DNA from: a virus
Lineage: Duplodnaviria > Caudoviricetes
Direction: 5' to 3' (one strand)
Length of the DNA: 64,000 bases
IMG/VR virus record: IMGVR_UViG_3300045999_011354
Location: 1,340 to 65,339 of that record
Shown: one piece after another, positions 2 through 34,294 of the stretch
How positions within the stretch are numbered: position 1 is the stretch's first letter
Layout: each line of letters begins with the position of its first letter
The notes under the pieces: generated by a model
The model's input: the letters and a program-made list of their open reading frames with translations, nothing else
Database searches by the model: none
Told to the model about the DNA's origin: nothing
Translations under genes and position numbers: made by a program

Positions 2-3000
2 GCGACTAGCAAGGGGTTTGAATTTACCGAGCGTCCATCGCGCGGATTCCGTCCATTCCGTGAAGCTCAAGGCTTTGGTCGTGGTACGGAAGGTGCAACG
101 CAAGAATTCAACAACATGATGTTGGATTTCAGAAAGCAAATAGCCGAGCTAACGACTCAGCCAGAGATCTTCAGCAATCTTCTTAAGGCGCTTCCAAATT
201 CTCGGATTACGACTGATCTGGTTGGCGCCGCAAATCGTCGTGCGCTTGCATCAGAACTTCCGTCCTTCATGCCCACGCAAAGGATGATGGGGTCTGGTGA
301 GCTAGAAAAAGTAATCACAAGTGCTTTTGCAGATTATTTCCGTACCTTGCGTACTCCAAATCCTTGGGTTGGCGCTGTTGGTGATTATCGTGAATTTATT
401 AATAAAGTTATCGCTGAAACCAAAAAACTTGATACTCAGCAAAAGCTGCTGACTGGTGCAAGAGTCGCTGGTGCTCTTCCGCCATCAAGCAGAGAAGGTC
501 GAATTGCGGAGGCGTATCGCAGGTCCGAAGAGCGTGGCCGTGTCGTGATGGCAGAAGGTGCTTTTGGCGCTGGACAGGCCTCTCTTCCTTCGGCTGGACC
601 TAGAAGCCTCAGCAATTCAATCAGTGATCTGCTTAACAGGATTTCTTCTGCTGTTCGCAGTTCTTTTGGTGGATTTGGCAGCGGCGGGCGCCCTCCTGGC
701 GGCATCGGTGGCGGTGCTGCCGCTGGTGGCACTCCAAATCAAGCTGCACAGCTTCTTGGCCTTGATGCAATTGCTGATATTTCTCGCGTTTCCACCCGTG
801 AACTTGAAGCGTTATCTGCTGCAGCCTCCGAACTTCGCGCTGTTCTTGATCCAACGATTGAAGGATTTGATCGCCTTGACAACCAACTTCGTGAAACGAT
901 TGGGCAGATTGGTCGGCAAATTGAGCGTCGCGCCCCTGAGGCAGGCTTCCTGACTCGCCAATTTGGCCCCAGGACCGCCCGAGGGCTTAGTGAGGGATTA
1001 ATTGGTGGCGCCTTCCCACTTCTGTTTGGGCAGGGCATTGGGGCTGCTGTTGGTGGTGGCGCTGGCGGCTTTGCTGGTGGATTCGCTGGTGGCGGCCTTG
1101 GCTTTGGTTTGTCATTGGTTGGTACTGCGCTGGGCGCAGCGTTTGATACCGCAGTTCAGAGCGCAACTGAACTCGGCGCCGCCCTTCAAAAACCAGTTGA
1201 AAATTTTGATAAATTAACAGAAAAATCATTTTTCTCATCTAAAGCACTTGAAAATACAATCAAAAAAACAATTGAATACGGAGATACTGCTACAGCTTCT
1301 GCTTTGATTCAAGAAGAGTCAATCAAAAAGCTTGGAGTTAACGGAGTTCAAAACTTAAAAATACTTGGCACTGAAAGTGATCGCCTAAATAGGGCATTCG
1401 CTGAGCTTGGGCAGCAAATGCAAGCCGTTGCAGCGGGGCCGCTCTCCGCTGTAACAGGATTTTTTGCAAATATTTTCGGGCAGGCCGCCGCCGCTGGCAG
1501 GGTTCGCATTCTTCGCTCAAACTTAAATGAACAGCAGGCTGGCCAATTCAACCAAGAAATCCTAGGGCGCTTGCAGCAAAGAGGTATTCAGCGTGGATTC
1601 TTTGCGCCAAGCGCGCCTACCGAAGCGGAAATTGGAATGCTTCAGCAGCAGGGCGCCTTGCAGGACATTGTAGATAAATGGCAGGCGATTCAAATCAAGG
1701 GTCAAATTAAGATTGATCCAAAGCAGCGAATTGAGTCTGAAATCAATGCGCTTCAAAAACAGCTTGAAGCAATTGATATTGGTAGGTCGCTCAAGGATCA
1801 GGTAAGAAGTACGGCGAAAGAACAGCAAGATCTGGACAAGCAGCGCTTTGATCTTGTTCGCTCGTATGAAGACAGCATTGCTGGCCTTCGCAGGCAAGTT
1901 GAAGATGAAATCAGAAGCAAGCGCTTCGCAACTCTTGAAAAAGAAAACCAGCTGTTGGATGCACAGGGTCAAATTCGCATCAAGCAGCTTCAAATCGAAA
2001 ATCAAGCTGCAATCGCCAAGGCTGGTGTTGGCGAGCGCCCGGAAATCGAGCAAGCAGCGAAAGAAGTTGCTCAAATTGTTGCGCAGTTCTCCGAGCAGCA
2101 GCTAAGCGCAGAGGAGGAGGCCGCAAGGATCAAGCGGGATGCCGCACTTGAGGCGCAAAAGATTGATTCAGATGCAGCCCAGTTAAAAGTAAATATTGAG
2201 AAAGAAGTTTCTCGATTGAATATTGAGACTGCTCGCAGAGTTGCAGAAATCAACGATCAGGTAAGGCGCAGGAATGAAGAGGTCGATACTCGTCGCTTTA
2301 CAATTGAGCGAGACATCGCCGCCCTTAAACTCAGGCTTTTCCAAGACGAGCTTGCGCTTGCTACAAAAAATGCTGCCCTTCCTCTTGAGGCTCGCCAGCA
2401 AGCATTTGACTTATATGAAGCTGTAGCAAAAGAGCGGTCTGATGTTGAAAAGCTGAAGGCGCCAGCGCCTCTTCGCGGAGTTGGAGCTGTCGGTGGCGGC
2501 GGAGTCTCTACCGCCGGTCTCGATAAAGCTGCATCTGATTACAGAGCTGCTGTTGAAAATTACGTTGCAGCCCAACTAAGACTTAACGAGCTAGATGTAG
2601 TCAAGAGCGCCCAAGAGTTTTCTCTTGGCATTTTATCTCTTGCAAATAAAACAGACGCTGCGTTGACTGCTATTCAGACACGGGAGGCGGATGCAGAAAT
2701 TGAAAGATTGCGCTACATAGAGTTGATTAATGCGGGGCTAACGGATACCGTTGCGCAAAAAATCATAGAGCTTGAAACAACGAAGCAAGTTGCACTTGCT
2801 GTCTACGATACGGCGATTGCTCAGCTTGAAAATAAAATACAAGCCGGTGAGGTCACTGCCCAAGTTGACGCTCAAAACAGAGCGTATTTAGAGCAGATTA
2901 AAATCTTAAAAGATAGAAAAGACGCCATTGAAGGCAAGTTTGGAGCTTTTGATACAAGAACGGGTAAGGGAACCGGGGCAATTGGTGGCGCAGTGCAGTC

Positions 3001-3832
3001 GGAGCCAGGTAAAAAGATTCAAGATTTTATTGCACAGTCAAAAGCTGAGCTAAATGATTTAGAGGCCGTCGCCGTCCGCGTCTCTCAAGGCATTGGTGAC
3101 GCAATTGCAAGTTCAATGGCAAATGGTATCACCGGCTTGATTGAAGGCACGACAACAGCAAAAGAGGTATTTGCTGGGTTCTTGAAAGATGTTGGCAACA
3201 TTTTGATCAAAGAAGGTACGCGCATGATTGGAATGTACGTCGCAATTGGCATCGCAAAGATGTTTGCTGGACTATTCAGTGGTGCGGCTGGTGCAAGCAA
3301 GCCAGCTTTACCTGGATCAATGGGGCAGGCAACAAACACCGGGCTTAACACTGGCGCCGGAAACATTTCGGATATGCTTAGCGGACTCGCTGCAGATGGA
3401 GCCTATTTTGCAAATGGAGTCGCAGCTTTTGCGAAAGGCGGCATGTTTACGAATTCTGTTGTTTCTTCGCCGACTCTCTTTAAGTTTGCAGATGGTGGCG
3501 TTCAGCGCACTGGCCTGATGGGTGAGGCCGGTCCAGAGGCGATCATGCCTCTGCGCCGCTCAGCTAGTGGTCGCCTTGGAGTCGAAGCCAGCGGCCTGCG
3601 CGAGGCAATGAACTCGGGCGCTGGTGGCGGCATGGGCACTCCCTCACTCAACATGACCTTCGAGACCACCAACATTGGAGGCGTGGAGTACGTCAGCCGC
3701 GATCAACTCGAAGCCGCAATGGCCGCTACTCGCCGTGACGCCGCTCGTGACGGCGCAAAACGTGGAATGTCGATGACGCTCGATAAGCTGCAACAAAGCC
3801 CTGGCACTCGTAGCCGAGTGGGACTCCGCTGA
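2..3832 (+). CDS. Tail tape measure protein, 5' end truncated by the window
   Basis: Frame is open from position 2. Long Ala/Gly-rich and coiled-coil protein with a lambda-TMP-like C-terminal motif (FAKGG...GLMGEAGPEAIMPL), upstream of minor tail genes. Confidence 0.9.
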   Translation, partial: ATSKGFEFTERPSRGFRPFREAQGFGRGTEGATQEFNNMMLDFRKQIAELTTQPEIFSNLLKALPNSRITTDLVGAANRRALASELPSFMPTQRMMGSGELEKVITSAFADYFRTLRTPNPWVGAVGDYREFINKVIAETKKLDTQQKLLTGARVAGALPPSSREGRIAEAYRRSEERGRVVMAEGAFGAGQASLPSAGPRSLSNSISDLLNRISSAVRSSFGGFGSGGRPPGGIGGGAAAGGTPNQAAQLLGLDAIADISRVSTRELEALSAAASELRAVLDPTIEGFDRLDNQLRETIGQIGRQIERRAPEAGFLTRQFGPRTARGLSEGLIGGAFPLLFGQGIGAAVGGGAGGFAGGFAGGGLGFGLSLVGTALGAAFDTAVQSATELGAALQKPVENFDKLTEKSFFSSKALENTIKKTIEYGDTATASALIQEESIKKLGVNGVQNLKILGTESDRLNRAFAELGQQMQAVAAGPLSAVTGFFANIFGQAAAAGRVRILRSNLNEQQAGQFNQEILGRLQQRGIQRGFFAPSAPTEAEIGMLQQQGALQDIVDKWQAIQIKGQIKIDPKQRIESEINALQKQLEAIDIGRSLKDQVRSTAKEQQDLDKQRFDLVRSYEDSIAGLRRQVEDEIRSKRFATLEKENQLLDAQGQIRIKQLQIENQAAIAKAGVGERPEIEQAAKEVAQIVAQFSEQQLSAEEEAARIKRDAALEAQKIDSDAAQLKVNIEKEVSRLNIETARRVAEINDQVRRRNEEVDTRRFTIERDIAALKLRLFQDELALATKNAALPLEARQQAFDLYEAVAKERSDVEKLKAPAPLRGVGAVGGGGVSTAGLDKAASDYRAAVENYVAAQLRLNELDVVKSAQEFSLGILSLANKTDAALTAIQTREADAEIERLRYIELINAGLTDTVAQKIIELETTKQVALAVYDTAIAQLENKIQAGEVTAQVDAQNRAYLEQIKILKDRKDAIEGKFGAFDTRTGKGTGAIGGAVQSEPGKKIQDFIAQSKAELNDLEAVAVRVSQGIGDAIASSMANGITGLIEGTTTAKEVFAGFLKDVGNILIKEGTRMIGMYVAIGIAKMFAGLFSGAAGASKPALPGSMGQATNTGLNTGAGNISDMLSGLAADGAYFANGVAAFAKGGMFTNSVVSSPTLFKFADGGVQRTGLMGEAGPEAIMPLRRSASGRLGVEASGLREAMNSGAGGGMGTPSLNMTFETTNIGGVEYVSRDQLEAAMAATRRDAARDGAKRGMSMTLDKLQQSPGTRSRVGLR

Positions 3833-10152: not shown

Positions 10153-13100
10153 ATGGCAGATCAGCGTATTACTCAGCTAACAGCACTGCCCAAAGCTGGG
10201 GTTTCGGCGACAGATGTGCTACCCATTGCGGATATTTCTGCAACAGAAACTAAAAAAGTTACAGCAAAAGATCTTGTTGCCGCCGGCATTGATCTTGTAG
10301 ATGCTGGTGAAATTGACCTATCAAAGCTCGATCAAAATAGTGTCACAAAGATTGGGACAGTTGCGATTGAGTCGCGTGCAATCGTAGCTGACAAACTGGC
10401 ACACAACAGCAGTGTCATTCTTTCTGTTATCACGCCCGCCTCTAACAATTTTGAGGGCAGAGGATACTTCAATACGTCGACTGGCAATATTCAGTTTTTC
10501 AATGGAACCGCTTATCAGCAGGTCGTCATGCCCACGGCGGGCATTGGAGATCTGCAGATAACAACGGGCAAGCTCGCGGACGGTGCTGTCACGACCGCAA
10601 AAGTAACGGCGCTTGGCACGGCGGCTTACGCAGATAACAGCGTCACCACCTTAAAGATCGCAGACGGTGCGATCACTGCCGTCAAGATTGCTGCGGACAG
10701 CATTACGGCGTCGCAGATTGCGCCCAGTGCGATTGGCGCATCAGAGCTAGCGGATAATGCTGTTGATACTGGATCTATTCAGGCGCTTGCTGTCACCGAA
10801 GCCAAGCTAGCGGATGGCGCTGTCACCACAAACAAGTTAGGCGACTTGGCCGTAACAAATGCCAAGATCGCTGCGTCCACAATTACGTACAGCAAGCTTA
10901 ATCTTGCTGACGGTTCGGTTCCTGGCGCAAAAATTACGTCAGACTCTATTACCAACGCACAGATCGGCACTGGAGCAGTTCAAACCAGCGAACTAGGGGA
11001 TTCTGCGGTTACAACAGCAAAAATTGCTGACGGCGCCGTCACTGCAGTCAAGATTGCGTCTGATTCGATTACTGCATCGCAAATTGCCGCAAACGCTGTT
11101 GGGTCTTCTGAGCTGGCAGATGATGCAGTTGACACCGGAAGCATTGTAAATCTTGCTGTTACAGAAGGAAAGATTGCCGCCGGGGCAGTTACAAATGCAA
11201 AACTTGGAGATCTTTCTGTTACCGATGGCAAGATCGCTAATGCAACAATCACATACGCAAAGCTAAACCTTTCTGACAACTCTGTTCCGGGCGCAAAAAT
11301 CACAAATGGGTCGATTACCTCGACTCAGCTCGCATCCGCTGCTGTTGAAACAGCAGAAATCGCCAATGATGCCGTCACCACGGCAAAGATTGCAGACGAT
11401 GCTGTAACTGCCGCAAAGCTTGGCCCTGAAGCTGTTGATTCAAGTGCTCTTGGCGCTGGTGCAGTTACAAATGCAAAAATTGGTTCTGCTGCTGTCACTT
11501 ACGACAAAATTCAGAATGTCAGCGCTACTGATCGACTGTTGGGGCGCTCCTCTGCTGGAGCTGGGTCGATTGAGGAGATCCCGCTGACCCCTGCAGGCCG
11601 CGCCCTGCTTGATGACGCCGACGCTACTGCTCAACGCGCCACGCTGGGCCTGGGCTCCCTTGCCACGCAGTCAGGCACCTTCTCTGGTACGCATAGCGGC
11701 ACCACGTCTGGGACGAACACGGGTGATCAGACAATCACGCTCACAGGCGACGTAACGGGCTCGGGAACGGGCTCATTCGCTGCCAGTATCAGCACTGCTG
11801 CTGTCACAGAAACAAAGATTGCCAGCAACGCTGTTACAACAACAAAGATTGCCGATGACAATGTTACTTCTGCAAAGCTTGCGGATAACTCTGCTGCAAT
11901 CGTTGCCGCATCGGTTCCCGCTGGCTCAGGTGCATTTGTAGGTCAGCAATGGATCAATACTGCTACTGCAATCGAATACACATGGGATGGCTCTCAGTGG
12001 CTGAGGCAGGCGTCTCTTGGGACGATTTCATTTACGGATTCGACGCCGCTTACATTTGCTGTTAGCTACCCAGATGCGTACAGCGCAACAGTTACGGCAA
12101 CTCTTGACATTCAGTCCGCCAATCGCATTTTTGCTGGCCCAACAACAGGATCTGACGCTGCGCCCACCTTCCGCGCAATTGTCCCCGCAGATCTACCAGA
12201 TGCAACCAGTGTCGCCAAGGGAATCATTTTGCCCGGTAGTGGATTAAGTATCAGCAGCGGCACGCTTAATCATAGCAACAGTACGACCGCTGGAACATAT
12301 ACAAAAGTTACCGTTGACGCGCAGGGTCATGTTTCGGCGGGTACGACTTTAATCGCTAGCGACGTTCCTGCGCTTGATACCAGCAAAATTACGACTGGAA
12401 CGTTTGCAACAGCAATGCTTGCAAATGATAGTGTAACTGCGGCCAAGCTCGCTGATTACTCAACCGCGCAAATTGGGTCATCTCTTCCAACTCCCGATTT
12501 CATTGGCCAGTTACATCTGAACCCGCTAGAGCGAACCGTCTACATGTGGGACGGCAACGTTTGGCAGCCTGTTGGTATTACCGCTGGTACCGTTATTTTT
12601 GCTGGTACGTATGACGCAAATACCAATCAAATTGCTTCTGTGACGAATGAGGGAAGCTCGCTTGGGTTGAGCGTTGGCAATCCACTACCAGCCGCAAGCA
12701 CAAACAACCAAAACTACTTTGTGATTGTTAGCAACGCTGGAACTGGTACAAGTCCAGCCCCGACCGTTGGACTGCTTCCGCCGGACCTTGTGCTTTCAAC
12801 TGGAACAGCTTGGGTGCGAATTGAGTCGTCTGACGCTTACATTGCACAGGTTGCGACTCAGGTTTCCTTCACGCCCGCCGGTCAAATTTCCAGCACCAAC
12901 GTGCAGGCGGCAATTGAAGAAGTAAGTAGTGAATGCCGCAATGCGACAAATATCACTAGCGGAACTCTTGCTGCAACCGTTGGTGGGACCGGAATTACCA
13001 CATACGTAAAAGGTGATTTAATTGCTGGCTCGGGGACGAATACTCTTGCAAAGCTGGCGGTTGGCACAAATGGTTACGTACTAAAAGCAAACAGCAGCAC

Positions 13101-13332
13101 GGCTACCGGATTGCAATGGGCCGCCTACGACGCGCTTGTGACTGGTGGTGGCACGATGACGGGAAATCTCGGAATCGGGAGCGCTGCAACAATTGTTTTC
13201 GAGGGGGCGACAGATGATACATATGAAACTGTTCTTACGGTTATTGATCCGACCGCTGACAATACAATTTCTCTTCCGAACAGTAGCGGGACAATTGCGC
13301 TGACAAGTGATCTTGATGACGGAACTTTTTGA
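10153..13332 (+). CDS. Long tail fibre with decapeptide repeats
   Basis: Many IADGAVTTAK-type repeats; N-terminal ADQRITQLT motif. Confidence 0.8.
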   Translation: MADQRITQLTALPKAGVSATDVLPIADISATETKKVTAKDLVAAGIDLVDAGEIDLSKLDQNSVTKIGTVAIESRAIVADKLAHNSSVILSVITPASNNFEGRGYFNTSTGNIQFFNGTAYQQVVMPTAGIGDLQITTGKLADGAVTTAKVTALGTAAYADNSVTTLKIADGAITAVKIAADSITASQIAPSAIGASELADNAVDTGSIQALAVTEAKLADGAVTTNKLGDLAVTNAKIAASTITYSKLNLADGSVPGAKITSDSITNAQIGTGAVQTSELGDSAVTTAKIADGAVTAVKIASDSITASQIAANAVGSSELADDAVDTGSIVNLAVTEGKIAAGAVTNAKLGDLSVTDGKIANATITYAKLNLSDNSVPGAKITNGSITSTQLASAAVETAEIANDAVTTAKIADDAVTAAKLGPEAVDSSALGAGAVTNAKIGSAAVTYDKIQNVSATDRLLGRSSAGAGSIEEIPLTPAGRALLDDADATAQRATLGLGSLATQSGTFSGTHSGTTSGTNTGDQTITLTGDVTGSGTGSFAASISTAAVTETKIASNAVTTTKIADDNVTSAKLADNSAAIVAASVPAGSGAFVGQQWINTATAIEYTWDGSQWLRQASLGTISFTDSTPLTFAVSYPDAYSATVTATLDIQSANRIFAGPTTGSDAAPTFRAIVPADLPDATSVAKGIILPGSGLSISSGTLNHSNSTTAGTYTKVTVDAQGHVSAGTTLIASDVPALDTSKITTGTFATAMLANDSVTAAKLADYSTAQIGSSLPTPDFIGQLHLNPLERTVYMWDGNVWQPVGITAGTVIFAGTYDANTNQIASVTNEGSSLGLSVGNPLPAASTNNQNYFVIVSNAGTGTSPAPTVGLLPPDLVLSTGTAWVRIESSDAYIAQVATQVSFTPAGQISSTNVQAAIEEVSSECRNATNITSGTLAATVGGTGITTYVKGDLIAGSGTNTLAKLAVGTNGYVLKANSSTATGLQWAAYDALVTGGGTMTGNLGIGSAATIVFEGATDDTYETVLTVIDPTADNTISLPNSSGTIALTSDLDDGTF

Positions 13333-13386: not shown

Positions 13387-15918
13387 ATGTCCAACGCGAA
13401 TCCCCTGCAGCTTCTTCGTAGCAATACAGCAAACAAGCGCCCCGACCCGACTGCGCTCGCCGATGGTCGCCCGGCCGTCAACACTAACGCCGTGAGCCCT
13501 GGCCTGTTCTTCAAGGACAGCGCAGGGAATCTCGTCAAGGTTGGCCCGGTCCATGTGGGTACGACTGCTCCGAATGCCTCCCCGGCCAGCGGCGGCGCTA
13601 CCGGGAACAGCTTGGGTGAGCAGTGGCTTGACACCACCGGCGGCGTTTATGTGCTGAAGATCTGGGATGGTTCTGCGTGGCGCAGTGAAACAGGAACATT
13701 CGTGGACGCAAGTGGCGACACGATGACTGGGGCGCTCGTGATGGACAATCAACAGCAAGTGCGCTTCCGTGAAGTTACAGCAAATGGCACGAACTATATT
13801 GCACTTCAGGCGCCCGCATCTGTTGCCTCGGATAAGACAATCACGCTGCCTGACGTAAATGGTACTGTTGTTACGACTGGCGACACAGGAACTGTTACCT
13901 CAACGATGATCGCCGATGCGACAATTGTTGATGCAGATATTAGCGCTAGCGCTGAAATTGCAGTTAGCAAGCTCGCCGATGGAACCGCACGTCAACTGCT
14001 GCAGACTGACGCCGCTGGCACTGGCGTTGAATGGACAAGCAATGTTGATGTCCCAGGAACACTAGACGTAACTGGTGCAGCAACCTTCGATAGCACCGTT
14101 GCCGTTACGGGGGCACTTACAAAAAGCGGTAGCAATGTCGTAACTGTTGGTGATACTGGTACAGTTACATCGACGATGATCCTTGACGGAACTATCGTTA
14201 ATGCTGATGTGAATGCCAGTGCCGCAATCGCGGGCACCAAGATCAGCCCGGACTTCGGCAGTCAGAACGTCACCACAACAGGCACCAGCACGTCTGCCAG
14301 CTTCATCCCCACTAGCAGCGCCGTCCCAACCAACGGGGTCTATCTACCTGCGGCAAACAGCGTAGCCATCTCGACTAATGGCACTCAGCGTCTTCTCATC
14401 GAGGATGATGGTGATATCAATATCAATAGCGGATCATTCTTTTTTGATAACGGATTCAATCGTTTAGGCGTCGGCACGGTTACACCCGCCTATGAGCTAG
14501 AAGTTACATCTACAGGTGAAGCAGACATTCAAATTGACTCTGCCAGCACTTATGACGCAGCGTTGCGTTTTGCGGAAAACGGCACCAATGCCTTTACTAT
14601 TTATCACGACGCATCAGATTCTGCCCTGGTAATTTACGACAACACAAATACAACCGAACGCCTCCGCATCACATCGGACGGGAAATTAGGTCTGGGGACT
14701 AGTAGCCCTGGTTTTAAGTTAACTATTGAGGATGCTACGACACCCAGAATCCGCATCGGCGATGGTACCCGCCATTTGAATGTTGATGGCGGCTCCGCCA
14801 CTCAAAACGCAGCTATAGGAACAGATTACGCGGGATCTTTTGGTATTTACACGAATGGGGCCGCAAATACACGATTACATGTTACCTCGGCAGGTAACGT
14901 AGGGATTGGCACTACCAGCCCTGGTTCGCCTCTCACAATCGAGAGCAATGCTGGCAACCAAGTCAAAATCACATATCCATCGATTGCTTCATACTTTCTA
15001 AATGCAACATCTGGCGGTGACTTTGCAATCAATAAAGATGGCACAGAACGCGCCCGCATCGACAGCTCCGGCAGGCTCTTAATTGGCACGTCTACTGCCA
15101 AGAGCGGCACTAGATCACAGTACTCAAAATTTACCGTTCAAGGTAACAACCAGAGCACTGGCGATGGTGCTCAAATAAATCTTGCCAATAACACAAACGC
15201 GCCTAGCCTTAACACCGGCGATACTCTTGGTCAGATTATCTTTACAGATAATGGTCCTGGTGAGTACGGCAAGATTGCCTGCCAAATGGATGGAGCTGGC
15301 GCTGGAACGAATGACTATCCAGGCAGGCTAGTGTTCTCCACTACCGCCGACGGGGCGAGTTCTCCGACGGAGCGGATGAGGATTGGGAGCAACGGTGCCA
15401 TTTCACTTTCACCAAGCGGCACAACAAGAGGAGTTATTATCGGCAATGCTTTTTACGATCCTGTTAACGCAGCCGGAATACAGATTGCTAATTCAACTGG
15501 AACAGGACGTTCTCTGTCGGCAGTAAATGGTTCCGGCGCTCTGCAGGATAACTACATGAATCTTGGTGACCCTGCCACAAGGTGGGGCACTGTCTATGCA
15601 GCTACTGGCACCATCAACACTTCTGACGCAAACTTAAAGCAGGACGTTGAAGATCTTGATACGGCAGAGCTTAATGTGGCTAATGCTATTAAAGGATTGA
15701 TCAAAAAGTTCCGCTTTGTTGATGCTGTTGCTGAAAAAGGAAGCGATGCTCGCATCCATGTTGGCGTGATTGCCCAGGAAGTTGAACAAGCGTTTGTGGA
15801 CGAGGGCCTTGATCCGCGCCGCTACGGCTTGTTCTGCGAGGACACGCTGAAGGATGGCAGCAAGCGACTTGGCATCCGATACGACGAGCTACTGGCTTTT
15901 GTTGTCGCTGCTCTGTAG
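13387..15918 (+). CDS. Tail fibre / receptor-binding protein with C-terminal intramolecular chaperone (peptidase S74-like)
   Basis: Repeated ERLRI.S.G.VGIGT modules; C-terminal TSDANLKQD...GVIAQEV...GIRYDEL. Confidence 0.85.
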   Translation: MSNANPLQLLRSNTANKRPDPTALADGRPAVNTNAVSPGLFFKDSAGNLVKVGPVHVGTTAPNASPASGGATGNSLGEQWLDTTGGVYVLKIWDGSAWRSETGTFVDASGDTMTGALVMDNQQQVRFREVTANGTNYIALQAPASVASDKTITLPDVNGTVVTTGDTGTVTSTMIADATIVDADISASAEIAVSKLADGTARQLLQTDAAGTGVEWTSNVDVPGTLDVTGAATFDSTVAVTGALTKSGSNVVTVGDTGTVTSTMILDGTIVNADVNASAAIAGTKISPDFGSQNVTTTGTSTSASFIPTSSAVPTNGVYLPAANSVAISTNGTQRLLIEDDGDININSGSFFFDNGFNRLGVGTVTPAYELEVTSTGEADIQIDSASTYDAALRFAENGTNAFTIYHDASDSALVIYDNTNTTERLRITSDGKLGLGTSSPGFKLTIEDATTPRIRIGDGTRHLNVDGGSATQNAAIGTDYAGSFGIYTNGAANTRLHVTSAGNVGIGTTSPGSPLTIESNAGNQVKITYPSIASYFLNATSGGDFAINKDGTERARIDSSGRLLIGTSTAKSGTRSQYSKFTVQGNNQSTGDGAQINLANNTNAPSLNTGDTLGQIIFTDNGPGEYGKIACQMDGAGAGTNDYPGRLVFSTTADGASSPTERMRIGSNGAISLSPSGTTRGVIIGNAFYDPVNAAGIQIANSTGTGRSLSAVNGSGALQDNYMNLGDPATRWGTVYAATGTINTSDANLKQDVEDLDTAELNVANAIKGLIKKFRFVDAVAEKGSDARIHVGVIAQEVEQAFVDEGLDPRRYGLFCEDTLKDGSKRLGIRYDELLAFVVAAL

Positions 15919-22284: not shown

Positions 22285-23175
22285 TCAGCAGGTTCTAAGC
22301 TCTTTTCTTACTTTTAGCAAAAGCGCACATCTGTTAAGCCCATTCTGTTCTATCTTCTGCAATCTTCCACGCGACAACCCAGTCGCCTCGCATATATCCT
22401 TCCAGGGCGTTGGTGGATCTTTTGCGCGTTCAAGTACAACCATTTTTGTCATCTCATCTAAATAGCTTTCTATCGCCGCGTACGCATCTTCAATATTTGC
22501 GCGATTTTCTGCGTCTTCAATTGTATTTGAGTTTTTCTCATCCGCAATAATTTCAATCAAAAACGAACTATCCTCTGATTCATTCGCCTTTCTGTCGAGA
22601 CTTGTTAGTGCGCGTGGCGCGTTGGTTGCAATTTGTATTTCATCTGGTGTTAGATTTGAGTGCTCAGACAACTCTTCAAGTGTCGGCTCGCGTCCAAATT
22701 GCTTGCTAAATTCTTCAACTGTTTTCCTTATTTTGAATGTTGAATCATGTATTCCGATCGGGAGGCGAATTGTTAGATCAATGCACTGCATGGATCTTTG
22801 TATCGCCTGCCTGATCCACCAGTAAGCATAAGTGCTCATCGCGTATCCACGAGTCGGATCAAATTTTTCAACAGCTCGCGCTAGTCCGACATTACCTTCT
22901 TGCACGAGATCCATAAGATCAAGCGTCGTGCAACGATTTGTGTATTTTCTAGCAATATTAACGACTAATCTTAAGTTGCACTTAATAAATTTTTCTCTCG
23001 CCCTTTTTCCGATTCTTGCAATTTTTTTCTCTTCTTCTGTGTATGTTGATTCGTCTTTGTCGCGTATCAGCATCCATGCCTGCACCTGCGTGCCAAGCAT
23101 CACCTCCTGCGCTTTCGTGAGCAGGGGATAGCGTCCTATCTCATTGAGGTAGGTCTGTGTTGCATCACGTGTCAT
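22285..23175 (-). CDS. RpoD/sigma70-family RNA polymerase sigma factor
   Basis: YLNEIGRYPLLT, NLRLVVNIA, DLVQEGNVGL.RAVEKFDPTRGY..STYAYWWIRQAI. Confidence 0.95.
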   Translation of the reverse strand: MTRDATQTYLNEIGRYPLLTKAQEVMLGTQVQAWMLIRDKDESTYTEEEKKIARIGKRAREKFIKCNLRLVVNIARKYTNRCTTLDLMDLVQEGNVGLARAVEKFDPTRGYAMSTYAYWWIRQAIQRSMQCIDLTIRLPIGIHDSTFKIRKTVEEFSKQFGREPTLEELSEHSNLTPDEIQIATNAPRALTSLDRKANESEDSSFLIEIIADEKNSNTIEDAENRANIEDAYAAIESYLDEMTKMVVLERAKDPPTPWKDICEATGLSRGRLQKIEQNGLNRCALLLKVRKELRTC

Positions 23176-23335
23176 CGTCGTTTGAAGTGCCCTGTGAGAC
23201 TTGCAGGCAGTGCAGTTTCCATTGCGCTTGCCATTCCTGTGCATGATCCCACACCATCCCGATTCCGTAAACACGCCATTTCCAATTGTTTTCTTTGGAT
23301 GGCGCTTCGAGATAAGGCTTGTTACCGTCAGTCAT
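23165..23335 (-). CDS. Small Trp-rich hypothetical protein (56 aa)
   Basis: Hand translation MTDGNKPYLEAP...WRVYGIGMVWDHAQEWQAQWK; overlaps the sigma start. Confidence 0.55.
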   Translation of the reverse strand: MTDGNKPYLEAPSKENNWKWRVYGIGMVWDHAQEWQAQWKLHCLQVSQGTSNDDDT

Positions 23336-28282: not shown

Positions 28283-28310
28283 TGTAATTTGCTGTCGCTA
28301 TCGAATGATA

Positions 28311-28337
28311 CAAGAAAACCCCCTTTCGGAGGCTTTC
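28311..28337 (-). terminator. Intrinsic terminator
   Basis: Minus strand GAAAGCCTCC-GAAA-GGGGGTTTTCTT. Confidence 0.7.
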
Positions 28338-28545
28338 AAGTCTTGGGCTTACAAGCTATTCACCTTGACAAGGCCCAGAACCCACATGCGGGGGCGGTAC
28401 CGCCTTGTTCCCTGATGAGACCCCTTGACGTTGCGTGCGCTGGTGCTTTACAGGCCTACCGCTTGGCCCGAGCAGTAGAAGCGTTGGCGCGGGGGAGGTG
28501 AATCAGTCCGGTTTCAGTGGGATCAGACCGTGCTCCGCCAAGCGA

Positions 28546-28902
28546 TCAGAACGGCATTTCGTCTTCTGCAGGGGCTTGAGAGCGAGATGGCATCTCTTGA
28601 CCTTGACGCTCAGGGATCGTGAAGTCAGTTGCATCCATGTAGATAGCAACGTAGTCAGTGCCGTCTTTTTTCTTTTTGGGTGAGACGGTTTTCACGCTTC
28701 CAACAAGAGTCACCTGGCGCCCGTCTTCCATGAACTTAGTGACGGTTTCAATCTTTTTGCCGTAGAAAGTGGCGTTGACGAAGTGAGTCTGTTTTCCGTT
28801 GGTAGTTTTAGAGCGGATACTGACAACGGCAGTTTTGCCGTAGTCGCCATCTTTTACTTGAACTTCGCCGGTCACATAACCGCTAGCAACAAGAGTGAGC
28901 AT
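28546..28902 (-). CDS. ssb: Single-stranded DNA-binding protein
   Basis: OB-fold pattern and acidic C-terminal EDEMPF. Confidence 0.85.
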   Translation of the reverse strand: MLTLVASGYVTGEVQVKDGDYGKTAVVSIRSKTTNGKQTHFVNATFYGKKIETVTKFMEDGRQVTLVGSVKTVSPKKKKDGTDYVAIYMDATDFTIPERQGQEMPSRSQAPAEDEMPF

Positions 28903-29663
28903 CAGAGTTCAGGCTCAATGAGCCTTGGAAATTGGGTGTTTTCGAGTGAGCAGTAAGCTTTGTAACGCTCGATAAATTCTTGCGCACAAGCTTTCAGCTC
29001 TTGCTTGTTCAGGACGTGAACGTGAGGTTCGCGCCAGTCGTAGCAAACACAGATTACACCCTGAGTTATCTCATTGTCAAGTTCGCCTCGCTTTACAGCA
29101 AGATTGTGAGCAAGCGCATATGCGGCGATCTGCACTTCAGCACTTTTGTAGTGCGACATTGATTTTGCTTTTTTCTTGACGCCTTCTTCTTTGTAGGAGC
29201 GCACTGTTTTCCAGTCCCAGATGCTGTACTGACCGTCCCAATGCAAGCGCAAGTCGGCAGTGCCTGCATAGCCAAGATGACAGTAAAGAGCTTCTTCCAT
29301 CAAAAAAGATGGAGCGCTGACTTCATTCTTGAAGTTTTCCTTTTTGATTAAATCAAGAACTGGCGACAGATGGGTGATGTATTCGTGAATGTTGTAATCC
29401 ATAATTTCATCCATCGTCGCGTGATCCATTTTATGTTTTTCTGCATCTTTCATGAACGACATTTCTACTTCAGCGTGAATGATCGTTCCCCTGCGCTGCG
29501 CCCGTTGCATAATGTCTTCCCAGTTGGGCTCCATCTGTCGCCAGATTTCAAGACCCTTTATTTTGTTTGGATCGAACAGTTCTGATGTCCTACCCAGAAC
29601 AGAGCTGACAGAAACGTATTCGTGATCGTCCTTGACGTAGAAGCCCGATTTAGGATGCGCCAT
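28902..29663 (-). CDS. PD-(D/E)XK exonuclease
   Basis: YVSVSSVL, RGTIIH, YAGTADL, DWKT, QIAAYA. Confidence 0.85.
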   Translation of the reverse strand: MAHPKSGFYVKDDHEYVSVSSVLGRTSELFDPNKIKGLEIWRQMEPNWEDIMQRAQRRGTIIHAEVEMSFMKDAEKHKMDHATMDEIMDYNIHEYITHLSPVLDLIKKENFKNEVSAPSFLMEEALYCHLGYAGTADLRLHWDGQYSIWDWKTVRSYKEEGVKKKAKSMSHYKSAEVQIAAYALAHNLAVKRGELDNEITQGVICVCYDWREPHVHVLNKQELKACAQEFIERYKAYCSLENTQFPRLIEPEL

Positions 29664-29672
29664 GTTTTCTGA

Positions 29673-29846
29673 TTAAAGAGAGGAGTTTGAGAGCAGGAAG
29701 TCAGCCGCCTGCCAATGCCCATTATCTCGCAAGTAAACGATAATTGCAAGCAGTGCGCGTTTTGATTCCGCCTCCCACTCCTCAGGCGCTCGATCGTTGA
29801 TGATCGGGGAAATAGCGAGACAGAGTTCGTGCTCAAGCTTTGTCAT
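29673..29846 (-). CDS. Hypothetical protein
   Basis: ORF within the operon. Confidence 0.5.
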   Translation of the reverse strand: MTKLEHELCLAISPIINDRAPEEWEAESKRALLAIIVYLRDNGHWQAADFLLSNSSL

Positions 29847-30105
29847 GTTTCTGTAAAAGAGATGGAAGCACTCGATCAAATACTTTTTTCCAGTTTATGA
29901 TTGCTGCGTGACCTTCGTGAATTGTTCTCACTTCGCCTGGTTCTGCAAGAATTTCTGCAAGCTGCACCGTTTTGTATCTGTGTCCGCAAAACTCACACTG
30001 CCTGTATCTATAAAAATCTCCACTTGCAGTTCTGAGCGAACTTGTAACCTTTGTGATCAATGCGTTGCATTTTGGGCAGGGCAGAGAGGCTTTGTTGAGT
30101 GGCAC
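29833..30105 (-). CDS. NrdR-like zinc-ribbon protein
   Basis: CPKC...YRYRQCEFCGHRYKT. Confidence 0.65.
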   Translation of the reverse strand: MPLNKASLPCPKCNALITKVTSSLRTASGDFYRYRQCEFCGHRYKTVQLAEILAEPGEVRTIHEGHAAIINWKKVFDRVLPSLLQKHDKA

Positions 30106-30174
30106 GAGGTAGGTGAGTTGGTTGAAGTTCTAATTTGAGGGAAATTAGAAGTTGACTTGGATTTGAGGGGGTGA

Positions 30175-30285
30175 TTAAGGGGCTGAGCTGCAGCGGATGA
30201 TGTGAATCAGGATCGCAACACCACCTGAAAGCCAAACAAACCATATGGCTGCCCAATAAGGAGGCCGAGAATAATGCTTGTTCAT
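30175..30285 (-). CDS. Small membrane peptide (36 aa)
   Basis: MNKHYSRPPYWAAIWFVWLSGGVAILIHIIRCSSAP; starts 10 nt downstream of a TAG-N9-CTT site. Confidence 0.4.
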   Translation of the reverse strand: MNKHYSRPPYWAAIWFVWLSGGVAILIHIIRCSSAP

Positions 30286-30315
30286 GAAACAACGAAGTGG
30301 GTCTGACTACTGGAT

Positions 30316-30645
30316 TTAAGAGCGCAACCTGGCTAGCAGGTCTGCCGTTTTCTCAGCCAGCTTGCAGTAGCTGGTGCCCTCATCACTGGAAACGATGTGT
30401 GGGCAAATGGAGTCGGGTTGCTCAATCCAGTTGCCGAGAGCCTGTTGCAGAGCTGTGAATTCTTTCCAGGTCATGGAAAGGGACTGGTGGCCTCGGCTTA
30501 GATGAATGTCAAAACCTTCAGCATTTGTCCATTCTGTGACTTCGAGGAAATCATCACCCTTTCTATCAATGTTGTAGTTCTTGAGTTCGACAAAGCGGCA
30601 TGTGCGCTGGGATTCTTTCATGGCGTTAGTGGGCTTCAAGTTCAT
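30316..30645 (-). CDS. Hypothetical accessory protein
   Basis: DFLEVTEWTNAEGFDI motif; C-terminal CPHIVSSDEGTSYC. Confidence 0.65.
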   Translation of the reverse strand: MNLKPTNAMKESQRTCRFVELKNYNIDRKGDDFLEVTEWTNAEGFDIHLSRGHQSLSMTWKEFTALQQALGNWIEQPDSICPHIVSSDEGTSYCKLAEKTADLLARLRS

Positions 30646-30871
30646 CAGCGATGGCGAGAAATTCTTGCCTTATGTCATTTGCTTTACTGAACAAAGCCCA
30701 GGCGTAGCCGTAGTCAATTGTTGGCCCTACAGAGTCTTCTGTTGGTTCTGGTTGCCAAGGCACCACCTGATCCGCAGCAGCGCGAAGGGCGGCGGCAAGA
30801 CAACCTTGTCCGGTATGGCTGGAGCGAAAGGCATCCAGCACTGCTCGTGTGACGGGTGAAAGTTCAGACAT
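30626..30871 (-). CDS. Hypothetical accessory protein
   Basis: LSP...AVLDAF...LAAALRAAADQVVP...FLAIADELE. Confidence 0.65.
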   Translation of the reverse strand: MSELSPVTRAVLDAFRSSHTGQGCLAAALRAAADQVVPWQPEPTEDSVGPTIDYGYAWALFSKANDIRQEFLAIADELEAH

Positions 30872-30971
30872 AGAAGTTGATCGGACTACTGGTGTTGCTT
30901 AAAAACAAGCACGGCTGACAAAGAATGTACTCACCAAGCTCATGATGCACAAAAAACAGTAGTGATGTTGA

Positions 30972-31334
30972 CTAATCGGGCAGGGAATCAAGAGCGCGGC
31001 GGATGGCAGATGAGTCAAAACCAAGACCGTGAGTAGAGGCATCCACTTTCAAAAGGTCCAACGCTTGTAGCGCCTGCTCCTTCAAGCTCGGCGGCTTGGG
31101 GCGGCGGGCGGCGCGGAGATAATCCGCGTAGTGTTTGTCGTAACCAGGCAGGCTGCTGTGGAGCCACTCACAACACGCCTCCAGCTCCTGATCAGCGCCC
31201 CAGCGGGCGGCTTGGGTGCAGATGAGCTGCTCGTAGTTCGCCGGATAAGCTCCGATGCAGTCTTGCGAGCGGGTGTTCTCCAGCCACTGCTCCACCAGCT
31301 CAGGCGGCGGAGTGATCGGGTGTTCTTGACTCAT
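30972..31334 (-). CDS. Hypothetical accessory protein, paralog A
   Basis: ITPPPELVEQW...ARWGADQELEACCEWL. Confidence 0.7.
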   Translation of the reverse strand: MSQEHPITPPPELVEQWLENTRSQDCIGAYPANYEQLICTQAARWGADQELEACCEWLHSSLPGYDKHYADYLRAARRPKPPSLKEQALQALDLLKVDASTHGLGFDSSAIRRALDSLPD

Positions 31335-31358
31335 TGTTGAACCTCGTAGTGTGTAGAT

Positions 31359-31823
31359 CTAATTAGAAAAAGATTCAAGAGTCGAAATTCGCTCTTCAAG
31401 GCTGGCGATGAGCTTGCTGGCGATCCAAGAGGAAGCGCATGTGTCGGGCTCATGCGGCCCGTAGACATTTACGCCCATCATCTCATCAATTTGACGAGCA
31501 CGATTTAACACCGCTTTGGAACAGTTATTCAAATAAGGATCGTCTGCTGGCAATACTTTTGGCTCGGGTCTAGTGCGGCGGGCGGCGAGAAGATCGTTCG
31601 CAAGATTATCCAAATTATGAACTCGTAGCCACGTTAGTAGCGCCTCCAACTCTTGATCAGCGCCGTACCTGGCGCTCCTTTCCATCAATTCCACGAATCT
31701 GTCGTACGCCATGGAAACCATTTGTAGGTAGCGACCAGCCTGTTCGGCAGTGACGTACTGTGGCTCGCAGCGCCATTGCTCTATCAACTCAAGCGAGGGA
31801 GTAATCGAATTGATGTCAGTCAT
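31359..31823 (-). CDS. Hypothetical accessory protein, paralog B
   Basis: ITPSLELIEQW...ARYGADQELEALLTWL. Confidence 0.7.
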   Translation of the reverse strand: MTDINSITPSLELIEQWRCEPQYVTAEQAGRYLQMVSMAYDRFVELMERSARYGADQELEALLTWLRVHNLDNLANDLLAARRTRPEPKVLPADDPYLNNCSKAVLNRARQIDEMMGVNVYGPHEPDTCASSWIASKLIASLEERISTLESFSN

Positions 31824-32016
31824 CGGTTGTAAGCAGTGAAGGGCCGAGTTGCTCTAGAGCGCACAACATGCACCAAGTACCCTCATGACCAGTGATGTTG
31901 CTGCTAATCGTGTGTGGATGAGTGCCGTGCTTAGGGCAGATGACCTTCGGAGGTTGATAGACAACTTGGGTTTGATTGGCAATTCGAAGGTCTTGAGCTT
32001 GAAATTCTTTAGTCAT
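31816..32016 (-). CDS. Small Cys/His zinc-binding protein
   Basis: CPKHG and CMLC. Confidence 0.55.
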   Translation of the reverse strand: MTKEFQAQDLRIANQTQVVYQPPKVICPKHGTHPHTISSNITGHEGTWCMLCALEQLGPSLLTTDD

Positions 32017-32218
32017 TTTCTCTGTGGTCGCTAACTGTTTTGCATTCTTTTAAGTCGATAACGGTGACATAGCCTTCCCCGTGCTCTGTTTCCCAAGTAC
32101 TCGGATGCGCCTTCGCTATAACTAGAGCGTCTTCAACCGTTTTACAGGTCTTGATTGGGTAAGAAGATACACCGCACTCGATGCAGCCAACCTGATAAAC
32201 CAGAAAGCGTGCGGTCAT
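32009..32218 (-). CDS. Hypothetical protein
   Basis: GCIECGVSS motif; coupled ORF. Confidence 0.55.
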   Translation of the reverse strand: MTARFLVYQVGCIECGVSSYPIKTCKTVEDALVIAKAHPSTWETEHGEGYVTVIDLKECKTVSDHREND

Positions 32219-32610
32219 TTTTCAATACCAAGTGTCGGGACAGGAAGACCGCCTTCGGTTGGAACGTAGATTGTGCGATTTCCTTTTTCGCTACCTTCTT
32301 GCAAACCTACAATATAAAGATATTGCAAATATCGCGGATTATCTTTCAGTGAATCCCCAATAATGCGATTAGCTTCTGCAACGCCTTTAGCGCGTTCAAT
32401 TTCAGCATCTGCCTCAAGCGAGGCTGCATCTTTTTTCGCCTTTGCTTCAAGTACTCTTACCTGACGAGTGCTTTCTGCCTCCATCAATGAGGCCTTGCCA
32501 GCAAGGGTGCGGTTGTAAACACCTAATTGCGGAATGCCCCAAAGAAGAAGGGCAAGCACTGCAACGACTGGGGTGGCAAGAATAAATACAACGAGTGCGT
32601 CTTGTTTCAT
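32215..32610 (-). CDS. Membrane protein resembling an SPFH/band-7 C-terminal region
   Basis: N-terminal TM; AEIERAKGVAEANRIIGDSL...YLQYLYI. Confidence 0.65.
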   Translation of the reverse strand: MKQDALVVFILATPVVAVLALLLWGIPQLGVYNRTLAGKASLMEAESTRQVRVLEAKAKKDAASLEADAEIERAKGVAEANRIIGDSLKDNPRYLQYLYIVGLQEGSEKGNRTIYVPTEGGLPVPTLGIEK

Positions 32611-32647
32611 GATAATTGATTAGATTGACTGTTGCTTTGATTGATTG

Positions 32648-32893
32648 TTATTTCCAGCGCTCTTGTGTCGCTGGCTTTTCTTTTGCGTAGAACGCAAGAA
32701 TTTCTTTGTAATTCTGCTCTACCCATTCACGAACTGCTCTGTTGGCAATTCCAGAAATACTCATGTCAGTCGCCTGAGACAACTGAACAATTTTGTCAAA
32801 TACTGCCTGCGGGACAGTGAAAGTAATGCGATGAGCTGTCATTTGATCAGTCGTCTCCGAATGCGTCTTCAGCAGCTTTTGCAAGATCATCAA
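32648..32893 (-). CDS. Ribbon-helix-helix (CopG-like) DNA-binding protein
   Basis: RITFTVPQAVFDKI...SISGIANRAVREW; real start is probably later (MTAHR). Confidence 0.6.
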   Translation of the reverse strand: MMILQKLLKTHSETTDQMTAHRITFTVPQAVFDKIVQLSQATDMSISGIANRAVREWVEQNYKEILAFYAKEKPATQERWK

Positions 32894-33653
32894 TCGACTT
32901 GCTATTGATCTTGTCGCTGACGGGCTCAGGAATGATCTGTGCGCCCTTGCTGTTCTTGCCTTGATTGAACATCTTGATATGATCCTTGCCCACCGCTTTC
33001 AGTAGCGCCGTCGCTTTGTTTTCAGGGATTTCGGCGAGACTCAACGATTCAGTGATCGTGAGCACGGTTTTGATCCCGTATTGCGTGATGCCCAGATCCA
33101 TCAGCTTGGTTTCAAGCTTTTCGTTGACAGAGGTGGGCGCAAAGGCAGCGCTGGCAGGAAGGCCGCCCGGTGTCTCATCGACGGGCTTGCGAGCTGCAGG
33201 AGCTGACTTGGGCGCAGAGGTGCCAGCATCGCTTCCCAGGACGGCATCCAGGGCGTCGTGCTCGACGATCTCCATGGCCGTCACCCAGAGGTAGCGACGG
33301 AGGTAGGTCTGCACAGCGCCCAAGTTTTGAATCTCGTGCGCCCCCTTGAGAGCGGCACTGGACATGGGGCTAGAGATCTCGATGCAGTCGTCAGGGTTGC
33401 TGCAGTCGGTGACGGTCAGCGTGGCTTCTTCTTTGCCGTAGCTGACAACACCTGACAGCTCGAGAGACAAAAAGATTTCTTGAACAGTAGGAAGGAAGTC
33501 CCCAAGTTCAAAGTAATTGTACCCAGCGAATTTGTTTTTACCGCTTTTTGAAAGCTTTTTGCCCTGAAGCGCGATACGCGCCTGCATGAGTTTCTGATGA
33601 ACGGACATGCCGCCTTGTGTGTTGAACAGATGCAAGGTAGCATCAGATTGCAT
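32847..33653 (-). CDS. erf: ERF-family single-strand annealing recombinase
   Basis: KSGKNKFAGYNYFELGDFLP...IQNLGAVQTYLRRYLW. Confidence 0.85.
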   Translation of the reverse strand: MQSDATLHLFNTQGGMSVHQKLMQARIALQGKKLSKSGKNKFAGYNYFELGDFLPTVQEIFLSLELSGVVSYGKEEATLTVTDCSNPDDCIEISSPMSSAALKGAHEIQNLGAVQTYLRRYLWVTAMEIVEHDALDAVLGSDAGTSAPKSAPAARKPVDETPGGLPASAAFAPTSVNEKLETKLMDLGITQYGIKTVLTITESLSLAEIPENKATALLKAVGKDHIKMFNQGKNSKGAQIIPEPVSDKINSKSIDDLAKAAEDAFGDD

Positions 33654-33974
33654 GAGCTGTCAACCCCCTTTAGCTGCAAAATGCCGACACGCGCCTCCAC
33701 CTCCCTCAATCGCATCCTGCGAGTGACGGTGAATTTGCTTTTTGAGAAGGGCGAAAGCGTACAGGCAATTGCAAATTTGATGCAGGGATTTGTTGATAGA
33801 AGAATGATTCAAGAATGGTATGAAAAGTATTGCGAGATCAACGGAATTAGTACGGAAGAGAATTCATCTCACAAACATCTGACAAGAAAGATTCCTGTTG
33901 CGCCTATTGATTTTGAAAAAGTAACGCTTGATGAGTTTGAGAAAAGAAAAGAATCGAACTGGGATGACTTTTAG
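33597..33974 (+). CDS. Hypothetical protein (isolated plus-strand gene)
   Basis: Divergent from erf; probable start MPTRAS. Confidence 0.5.
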   Translation: MNGHAALCVEQMQGSIRLHELSTPFSCKMPTRASTSLNRILRVTVNLLFEKGESVQAIANLMQGFVDRRMIQEWYEKYCEINGISTEENSSHKHLTRKIPVAPIDFEKVTLDEFEKRKESNWDDF

Positions 33975-33976
33975 TT

Positions 33977-34294
33977 TTACACAGGTTTCTGTTCCGATAA
34001 TTTTTTATAGTGCTTTTTCGCTGTCTCTTTTGCAAGCTCAAGCGTGCTTTCAACTGACGCAGGCTGTCTTGGGTGCGTATTCAACCATTGAAATGGCTGT
34101 GTTTTTTTAGCTTCTTCCCAGTCTGTGACTTTGATCACAGCAATCCCTCGCGTTGTCATCACCGCCCAGCCGTAGTGATGTGAAGTGTCATGTGCTTCCA
34201 AAAAAGCTTCGACGTATCCTGGCGCATTTAATTCGTCACGCAGCGTGAAGATTGATACCCAGTTCGGCGCCGGTGAGATCTTTGCGTTTGTCAT
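33977..34294 (-). CDS. Hypothetical protein
   Basis: N-terminal PNWVSIFTLRDELNAPGY. Confidence 0.55.
   Translation of the reverse strand: MTNAKISPAPNWVSIFTLRDELNAPGYVEAFLEAHDTSHHYGWAVMTTRGIAVIKVTDWEEAKKTQPFQWLNTHPRQPASVESTLELAKETAKKHYKKLSEQKPV

Follow-up and report, generated by a model that had tools for sequence, protein, structure and literature searches.

What marks the boundaries between the small genes of unknown function that crowd the early region of a phage, and what allows such genes to change neighbours there? The question is raised by a stretch of 64,000 nucleotides (hereafter the window, which means that whole stretch) out of the 65,339 bases of IMG/VR record IMGVR_UViG_3300045999_011354, a single record of a freshwater cyanophage-like virus (Duplodnaviria; Caudoviricetes) estimated to be 94% complete, in which a short motif recurs on the minus strand between positions 30295 and 31361. 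A first-pass annotation had likened the genes bracketed by this motif to integron-style cassettes, and had suggested that one site-specific system might shuffle both whole genes and tail-fibre domains. The analysis described here establishes that the motif, TAG-N8-ACT (hereafter the linker), is a real junction element at gene boundaries. As to its nature, we lean, with little more than even confidence, towards the view that the four sites are copies of a phage-specific stop-start linker working at the level of mRNA, which would serve at the same time as a point of exchange through short homology.

A junction element between small genes

Direct reading of the sequence bore out the four sites at their minus-strand positions, with the TAG of two of them doubling as the stop codon of the gene upstream. 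Site 1 (TAG-ATCTACAC-ACT-A, 31347..31361) supplies the stop of the first open reading frame (ORF1, 31359..31823) and is followed by a 12-nt leader containing GAGG and then by the ATG of ORF2 at 31334, and site 2 (TAG-TCAACATC-ACT-A, 30960..30974) supplies the stop of ORF2 (30972..31334). Site 3 (TAG-TCCGATCA-ACT-T, 30874..30888) lies 2 nt ahead of the ATG of ORF3 (30626..30871), and its TAG closes no sizeable ORF; site 4 (TAG-TCAGACCC-ACT-T, 30295..30309) lies 9 nt ahead of the ATG of ORF5 (30175..30285), and the stop of the upstream gene (TAA) falls 9 nt before the TAG of the motif. The proximity of sites to the next start had been noticed correctly, but the distances are 12, 2 and 9 nt rather than the 3-13 nt first given. 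A 71-nt near-empty segment does separate the two middle sites (30889..30959), its sole ORF being a hydrophobic mini-ORF of 14 codons (30899..30943; minus strand, like all five ORFs). The junction between ORF3 and ORF4 (30316..30645) has no linker because ORF4 overlaps the end of ORF3. At sites 3 and 4 the TAG is kept although the stop of the gene before it comes earlier; the TAG therefore belongs to the motif itself, and protein coding, as the first reading had already held, does not explain the sites among the small genes.

Does a pattern with six fixed bases deserve to be called an element at all? By number of matches it does not stand out in the window. The loose form TAG-N9-CTW, whose enrichment at gene boundaries had been named as a check, has 45 matches when both strands are counted, where shuffled sequences average 36.19 (sd 6.57) and 9 of 100 shuffles reach 45, and TAG-N8-ACT, with 24 matches on both strands where about 18 are expected per strand, is not over-represented either. 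What sets the linker apart is position and spacing: in the stretches from -35 to the ATG of 93 heuristically called genes of the window, TAG-Nk-ACT occurs four times at k=8 and at most once at each other k from 4 to 12. The same holds for related loci, which were selected by homology to ORF2 or ORF3 (L001-L104: 80 ORF2 relatives, kept from at least 582 confirmed in IMG/VR, and 24 ORF3 relatives, each with 3-kb flanks) and in which genes were called heuristically (ATG starts only, at least 40 amino acids, aa). There, 66 of 995 unique -35..ATG stretches carry the motif at k=8, as against 1-7 at each other k from 3 to 13, and mid-gene controls carry it once in 1036. An ATG follows within 14 nt in 97 of 147 unique instances on the gene strand versus 10 of 114 on the other strand, and the TAG of the motif closes an open frame of at least 40 codons at 77 of 89 unique sites, versus 751 of 3552 (21%) for all TAGs. 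Among 1059 unique same-strand junctions, those with gaps of 13-20 nt end the upstream gene with TAG in 34 of 51 cases, overlapping junctions in 5 of 297. The resulting layout consists of TAG, a G-poor core of 8 nt (mostly T-C-N5-C), ACT, A or T, and then G-poor bases up to the ATG (0-16 nt from ACT to ATG across unique sites), the ORF downstream being small (median 77 aa).

An independent sample, picked by the motif rather than by gene homology, behaves alike. TAGTC-N5-CACTTCTATG was found in at least 120 IMG/VR stretches, its N6 control in 26; of the unique sites of the former, 77 of 111 close a frame and 99 of 111 precede an ORF of at least 30 aa, the corresponding figures for the control being 1 of 20 and 4 of 20. 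In three Synechococcus/Cyanobium metagenome-assembled genomes (MAGs), on the contrary, the motif is about 10-fold rarer than its control (7, 17 and 11 matches versus 107-118). The linker is thus phage-specific and no general host signal, and a host expression signal was rejected on this depletion. In the stretches examined of the cultured phages S-CBS2, S-RIP1 and S-H1 there is one junction-type site, in S-H1 only.

At the RNA level, G makes up 6% of positions -12 to -1 at linker starts versus 26% at other starts, words resembling a Shine-Dalgarno sequence occur at 10 of 66 linkers, and five junctions show no stable fold beyond that of shuffled sequences (z -0.99 to +0.87). Several familiar signals were considered and set aside. 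Neither a host sigma-70 promoter nor an intrinsic terminator has a site at the linkers, and their counts stay at shuffle level (11 vs 13.8 and 15 vs 15.9). A T7-type promoter, whose layout we take to be similar to that of the motif, was rejected upon finding no match to PF00940 in the window's genome or in G001, G002, G003 and G005, the positive control S-RIP1 scoring 1.6e-70. A promoter read by a phage sigma factor was likewise rejected, as Sigma70_r2 is absent from all five other carriers of the motif that were searched as whole records (dissimilar phages, 38-87 kb in size, of which four are 94-100% complete). The boxes of cyanobacterial regulators of the NtcA, LexA and CRP types presumably do not fit either, in spacing or in their inner bases. 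A known RNA family (no Rfam match in 28000-37000) and a suppressor tRNA for TAG (no tRNA gene in the window) were also discarded.

Two further observations concern the extent of the motif. Genes that end at a linker TAG have D, Q or E as their last residue in 48 of 79 cases in L001-L104, a bias to which the ORF2 and ORF3 families contribute in part; the linker unit may for this reason extend to the last sense codon of the gene before it. A fifth match upstream of a gene, at 35774-35760, was rejected as a member, given its G-rich core, found nowhere else, and its setting inside an 8-bp inverted repeat. That repeat (AGTGCGCA...TGCGCACT, 35745-35773, minus strand) surrounds the ATG (35753) of a gene for a 505-aa PcfJ-like protein, and a hairpin predicted there, with the fifth match in its left arm, would sequester this start.

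Change of neighbours across the linker

If the linker marks the edges of exchangeable units, genes on its two sides should part company more often than genes at other junctions do. Where the ends of the upstream genes are similar, similarity extends to the downstream gene in 6 of 75 pairs at linkers; at overlapping junctions it does so in 153 of 268 pairs, and at other short junctions in 24 of 51. Among 253 pairs of sites with an identical 14-mer, neither flank is alike in 146, only the downstream flank in 77, only the upstream flank in 25 and both in 5, these pair counts being non-independent and identity having been measured without gaps. Neighbours hence change unusually often across the motif, which supports the idea that linkers act as cassette-like gene boundaries, as the first-pass annotation had expected of the flanks of homologs.

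The limits of similarity fall on the motif itself. In blastn comparisons of the window with other loci, high-scoring segment pairs have starts at 31360-31364 (site 1) and, at site 3, in the intervals 30888-30894 or 30871-30877; ends are seen at 30955-30961 (site 2) and, at site 4, at 30296, a position at which contigs of run X4 also have a loose end. One locus (L092) matches the window precisely between sites 1 and 4 (84-87% identity) and is dissimilar on either side of that block. ORF5 is absent from this locus, where site 4 passes straight into AGTCAACTTCTAAT-type sequence; the left edge of the indel lies inside site 4 and its right edge at a degenerate linker-like stretch of the window (AGTCAACTTCTAAT, 30144..30157, minus strand). 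The 71-nt segment is missing where a single linker joins ORF2-like and ORF3-like genes, and a contig of run X5 joins 30877 to 30967. Taken together, the breakpoints cluster at three places, namely TAG, ACT and ATG. A counter-example is provided by ORF1, which is missing from the closest relatives of the window (L001 and L002): the ends of this difference lie at two start codons within paralogous N-termini, and contigs from runs X3 and X4 contain the joint 31325/31820. An exchange from linker to linker was rejected for ORF1, since the ends are at start codons and there are no two linker copies; the difference looks like an unequal exchange between paralogues.

How free, then, are the cores of the linkers to vary? 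Most sites use one of a few exact cores, namely TCATTACC, TCCGATCA, TCAACATC, TCGCTTCC, (A/T)TCTACAC, TCAGACCC, TCACCTTC and TCCACCTC, and the four cores of the window (ATCTACAC, TCAACATC, TCCGATCA and TCAGACCC) are all exact recurring variants in other viral contigs. The core and leader of site 1, for instance, also occur in L011, L041, L063, L073, L092 and L100, where the genes that precede them differ. Within whole records, sites form a single array of 1-2.5 kb, on one strand and with one site per small gene, and the order of core variants along the arrays tends to match that of the window. Some cores travel with gene families: TCATTACC with the leader aatcaccc accompanies ORF2-type starts, while TCAACATC and TCGCTTCC accompany two kinds of ORF2-type ends. 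Part of the pattern of the same core between different flanks is therefore synteny.

A proposed stop-start linker and its rivals

What activity would suit such an element? Being confined to the coding strand, abutting starts, supplying stops, G-poor and predicted to be unstructured, the linker has the profile, we infer, of a sequence that works at the level of mRNA. Its primary job would be to end one small cistron and to pass the ribosome to the next start (stop-start coupling), the hand-over running across an unstructured, Shine-Dalgarno-free spacer, and it would in this respect parallel, in cyanophages, the start-associated sequences (SAS) described for Cluster K mycobacteriophages. Because the linker is the only sequence common to otherwise unrelated small genes, exchanges between co-infecting phages would resolve in it or at its edges, via short-homology or microhomology recombination, and single genes or small blocks would behave as cassettes without a dedicated integrase, as proposed for the early-promoter and stem-loop elements (PeSL) of T4-type phages. 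With a linker shared by unrelated genes, and with Erf, an exonuclease and RusA encoded by the window phage, short-homology exchange would be the simplest account.

Several points weigh against this view. The translational role is proposed from position and composition, the range of 0-16 nt between ACT and ATG is loose for a signal that positions ribosomes, and the reader of the invariant TAG and ACT is not accounted for. Shared stretches of 14-25 nt are on the short side for homologous recombination; moreover, the window phage has Erf, exonuclease and RusA, yet the five other carriers show no Pfam ERF match, so that the exchange machinery need not be these proteins. The conserved order of the arrays and the family-linked cores explain part of the pattern of identical cores between different flanks, and the non-independence of the pair counts, the heuristic gene calls and the choice of loci by homology to ORF2 and ORF3 have to be borne in mind as well.

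Could the linker, instead, be a site at which the polycistronic early mRNA is processed or repressed? A host RNase or a phage translational repressor would then act there to time the small early genes, for which RegB and RegA of phage T4 offer an analogy. The evidence from strand, position and composition is the same as for the stop-start linker, and invariant TAG and ACT around a free core suit recognition by a protein better than pairing with the ribosome. This explanation leaves open, however, why the TAG is so often a working stop, and no candidate factor common to the carriers was found; we consider it unlikely.

A DNA operator for a phage regulator would place the recognition one step earlier, with one repressor binding many asymmetric intergenic sites and silencing the early array, in the manner of the stoperators of Cluster A mycobacteriophages, which are bound by the phage repressor to block transcription. 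Many copies in a single orientation, in the intergenic gaps of non-structural genes, and the partial symmetry of the outer bases would agree with such a role. Nevertheless, the cores vary between the sites of one genome while identical cores recur in unrelated phages, and their distribution is for that reason the reverse of what an immunity-specific operator would give. Only 6-9 positions of the motif are constant, nothing that points to lysogeny, an integrase included, was found, and no regulator common to the carriers was identified, all of which makes an operator a rather improbable choice.

It is also conceivable, if quite doubtful, that the core of 8 nt acts as a compatibility code. Linkers with the same core would exchange, and small genes would move between unrelated freshwater phages with the order of linkers kept, by way of a nuclease or recombinase that escaped recognition or of template switching at the linker during replication; the arrays would then amount to an integron without an integrase.

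A dedicated site-specific system, in which TAG and ACT are recognition arms, the core is an overlap region matched between partners and an unidentified recombinase or nuclease moves cassettes of single genes, comes closest to the original proposal. The spacing fixed at 8, the symmetric outer bases (TAGT...ACTA), the discrete exact cores that recur with both flanks unrelated (146 of 253 pairs), the conserved core order, as expected from allele-matched double exchange, and the two HNH endonuclease genes of the window are all in keeping with it. Against this, neither tyrosine recombinases (PF00589; no match at E<=1 in the window's genome, whose completeness is given above, and none in the five other carriers, with 14 of 14 control genomes positive) nor serine recombinases (PF00239) were found in the window's genome or the five other carriers, and none of the families looked for is common to these dissimilar phages. 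The symmetry ends after 3-4 outer bases, position 11 being C where a palindrome needs G; breakpoints fall at three positions instead of one; and a site in double-stranded DNA has no need of a coding-strand, start-proximal and G-poor character. We regard this explanation as very unlikely.

How far does the comparison with integrons themselves hold? Arrays of small same-strand genes, a recurring bounding site and neighbours that vary between genomes are common to both, and a one-strand array of varying content, with the low retention of neighbours reported above, was indeed found. The attC site of integrons is an inverted repeat with imperfect arms, which folds into a hairpin and has conserved core sites. 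No attC-like hairpin was found for the linker, an element of 15-18 nt without a fold at the five junctions, and no IntI-type tyrosine recombinase was found in the window's genome or the five other carriers. The linker, unlike the integron site, is placed 5' of genes as a leader to their translation start and provides the gene before it with a stop codon. It follows that the element is not an integron: the cassette-like boundaries seen at first pass are supported, and the integron-type site-specific system is not. Nor can the system be extended to the tail fibres. The five matches in the fibre gene 13387..15918 (plus strand) all lie in codon phase 1, have G-rich cores and fall on a repeated peptide of the type G-K-L-G-L-G-T-S-S-P-G / G-N-V-G-I-G-T-T-S-P-G that ends in (S/G)-T, so they are explained by coding, and the proposal of one system for genes and fibre domains is left without support. 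The repeat of this gene may be written (R/H)(I/V)(T/G)S.G(K/N)(L/V)G(L/I)GT(S/T)SPG; it has weaker copies besides and yields TAG-N8-ACTA matches.

Chance, that is, four matches to a degenerate pattern of six bases near gene ends, could appeal to the lack of any excess of either form of the motif in the window, but it is refuted by the spacing and control scans, the independent sample and the neighbour-retention test, and the four cores of the window are all exact variants known from other viral contigs, which leaves it practically no room.

To which described elements, then, does the stop-start linker come closest? In the modular theory of lambdoid phage evolution, short conserved boundary sequences between modules are homologous crossover points, and the same idea of a crossover point applies here; the linker differs in being defined, of fixed spacing and tied to stop and start codons, and in separating single small genes, not modules. 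The SAS is a near-invariant sequence of 13 bp (5'-GGGATAGGAGCCC) with an AGGAG Shine-Dalgarno core, asymmetric with symmetric ends, found at non-structural genes only, a few bases before the ATG and often with the upstream stop inside it (PMC3203893). The linker resembles it in being a short asymmetric repeat whose outer bases are symmetric, in one orientation and among non-structural genes only; both lie a few bases from starts that are mostly ATG, often enclose the upstream stop and accompany genes of different families; and for both the translational role is deduced from position (PMC3203893). Of the traits that characterise the SAS, asymmetry, single orientation and a start-proximal place at non-structural genes were found in the linker, and the 13-bp consensus with its Shine-Dalgarno core was not. 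The linker has in its stead a variable 8-nt core in discrete variants, G-poor and without a Shine-Dalgarno sequence; it is spread over dissimilar phages of freshwater metagenomes and not over one phage cluster; and the extended inverted-repeat partner reported for the SAS (ESAS) was not seen for it (PMC3203893).

The PeSL unites a sigma-70-type early promoter with a terminator stem-loop (PMC2839356, PMC4122927). It shares with the linker its nature as a small conserved sequence between small non-essential genes in hyperplastic regions, its coincidence with the ends of the insertions, deletions and replacements that distinguish related phages, and a proposed mechanism of recombination between copies, whereas the linkers lack any promoter-like or terminator-like site and any stable fold and are several-fold shorter (PMC2839356, PMC4122927). 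The ends of indels and replacements at the element were found here, the combination of promoter and terminator stem-loop was not. Judged from this comparison, the SAS is the nearest described element by position and behaviour and the PeSL the nearest by evolutionary role; the linker is neither, and is best placed among regulatory junction sequences with a second use as shuffling points.

Genomic setting and significance

By its gene content (tape measure, 116..3832; tail fibres, 10153..13332 and the gene 13387..15918 discussed above; endolysin, large terminase, portal and scaffold) the window phage is of the siphovirus type. Its few DNA matches among cultured phages are all to Synechococcus phages, with coverage of at most 8%, and the metagenome runs that contain the stretch come from lake, freshwater, river, wetland and estuary samples, with no RNA run among those listed. 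An early block occupies the minus strand from about 21.7 to 40.2 kb and encodes a DnaB-like helicase, a replication initiator, Erf, an exonuclease, SSB and RusA, next to ThyX, dCTP deaminase, MazG, a dNMP kinase, a sigma factor and HNH endonuclease. The sigma-factor gene (22285..23274, minus strand; phrog_351, E 3.2e-56) is likewise annotated in Synechococcus phage S-CBS2. Over about 22 kb (34001-56000) the G+C content is 0.35-0.45 as against about 0.5 elsewhere; this stretch spans the replication genes and runs into a long plus-strand block of small ORFs that begins at about 40.9 kb, most of which, among those tested, have no PHROG match.

The four linker sites belong to this early block and fall within a group of six uncharacterised small genes, namely ORF1 to ORF5 and a zinc-ribbon ORF (29833..30105). 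ORF2 (120 aa; phrog_32006, E 2.3e-28) has no Pfam match and, with Foldseek against the PDB, no match at E<=0.001; its AlphaFold model is all-helical (pLDDT 78.7), and its neighbours in the Atlas are viral hypothetical proteins. ORF1 (154 aa) is a weak paralogue of it (phrog_32006, E 3.1e-4), ORF3 (81 aa) and ORF4 (109 aa) have no family match, and ORF5 encodes a hydrophobic product of 36 aa. Blocks of 40-50 nt within ORF2 (31069-31118) and ORF3 (30759-30798), both on the minus strand, recur in many loci at 86-100% nucleotide identity and in several copies per locus, and in four metagenome runs they show 10-25 times the depth of neighbouring contigs, with loose ends at their edges. Among ORF2 relatives at 52-75% protein identity, synonymous codons are near-fixed (TTG 16/19, AGC 16/19, GCG 19/19), which, together with the recurring blocks, suggests constraint at the nucleotide level or gene conversion.

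In the genome collection, ORF2 relatives (L108-L116) occur on MAG contigs only, the MAGs being those of Fonsibacter, a gammaproteobacterium (Gammaproteobacteria), an actinobacterium, Crocinitomicaceae, Luteolibacter, Methylacidiphilales and three Synechococcus/Cyanobium. As these belong to very different phyla, and the contigs are probably viral ones binned with bacteria, the assignments are weak evidence for a host. Ahead of the zinc-ribbon ORF, a perfect 7-bp inverted repeat (CTAATTT-N5-AAATTAG, 30130-30148, minus strand) lies in non-coding sequence and is kept, with an altered loop, in L092 and L102; it may be an operator or a small hairpin.

Among the papers listed in searches of the literature on PeSLs, on intergenic motifs of cyanophages, on freshwater cyanosiphoviruses and on recombination at phage gene boundaries, none describes the motif in its title or in the opening of its abstract. 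What is the significance of having such an element in place? Much of the gene content of phages that is still uncharted consists of small early genes without a known function, and the way in which such genes are exchanged is poorly understood. The linker is a defined, easily searchable junction element of fixed spacing, one sub-variant of which alone accounts for the at least 120 IMG/VR stretches noted above, and it marks where small genes begin and end and where neighbours change. It may therefore serve as a handle for delimiting cassettes in freshwater cyanophage-like genomes and is a candidate Shine-Dalgarno-independent stop-start signal for picocyanobacterial hosts. Beside the PeSLs of T4-type phages and the SAS of mycobacteriophages, it would also offer a further system in which regulatory linkers can be tested as drivers of modular shuffling.

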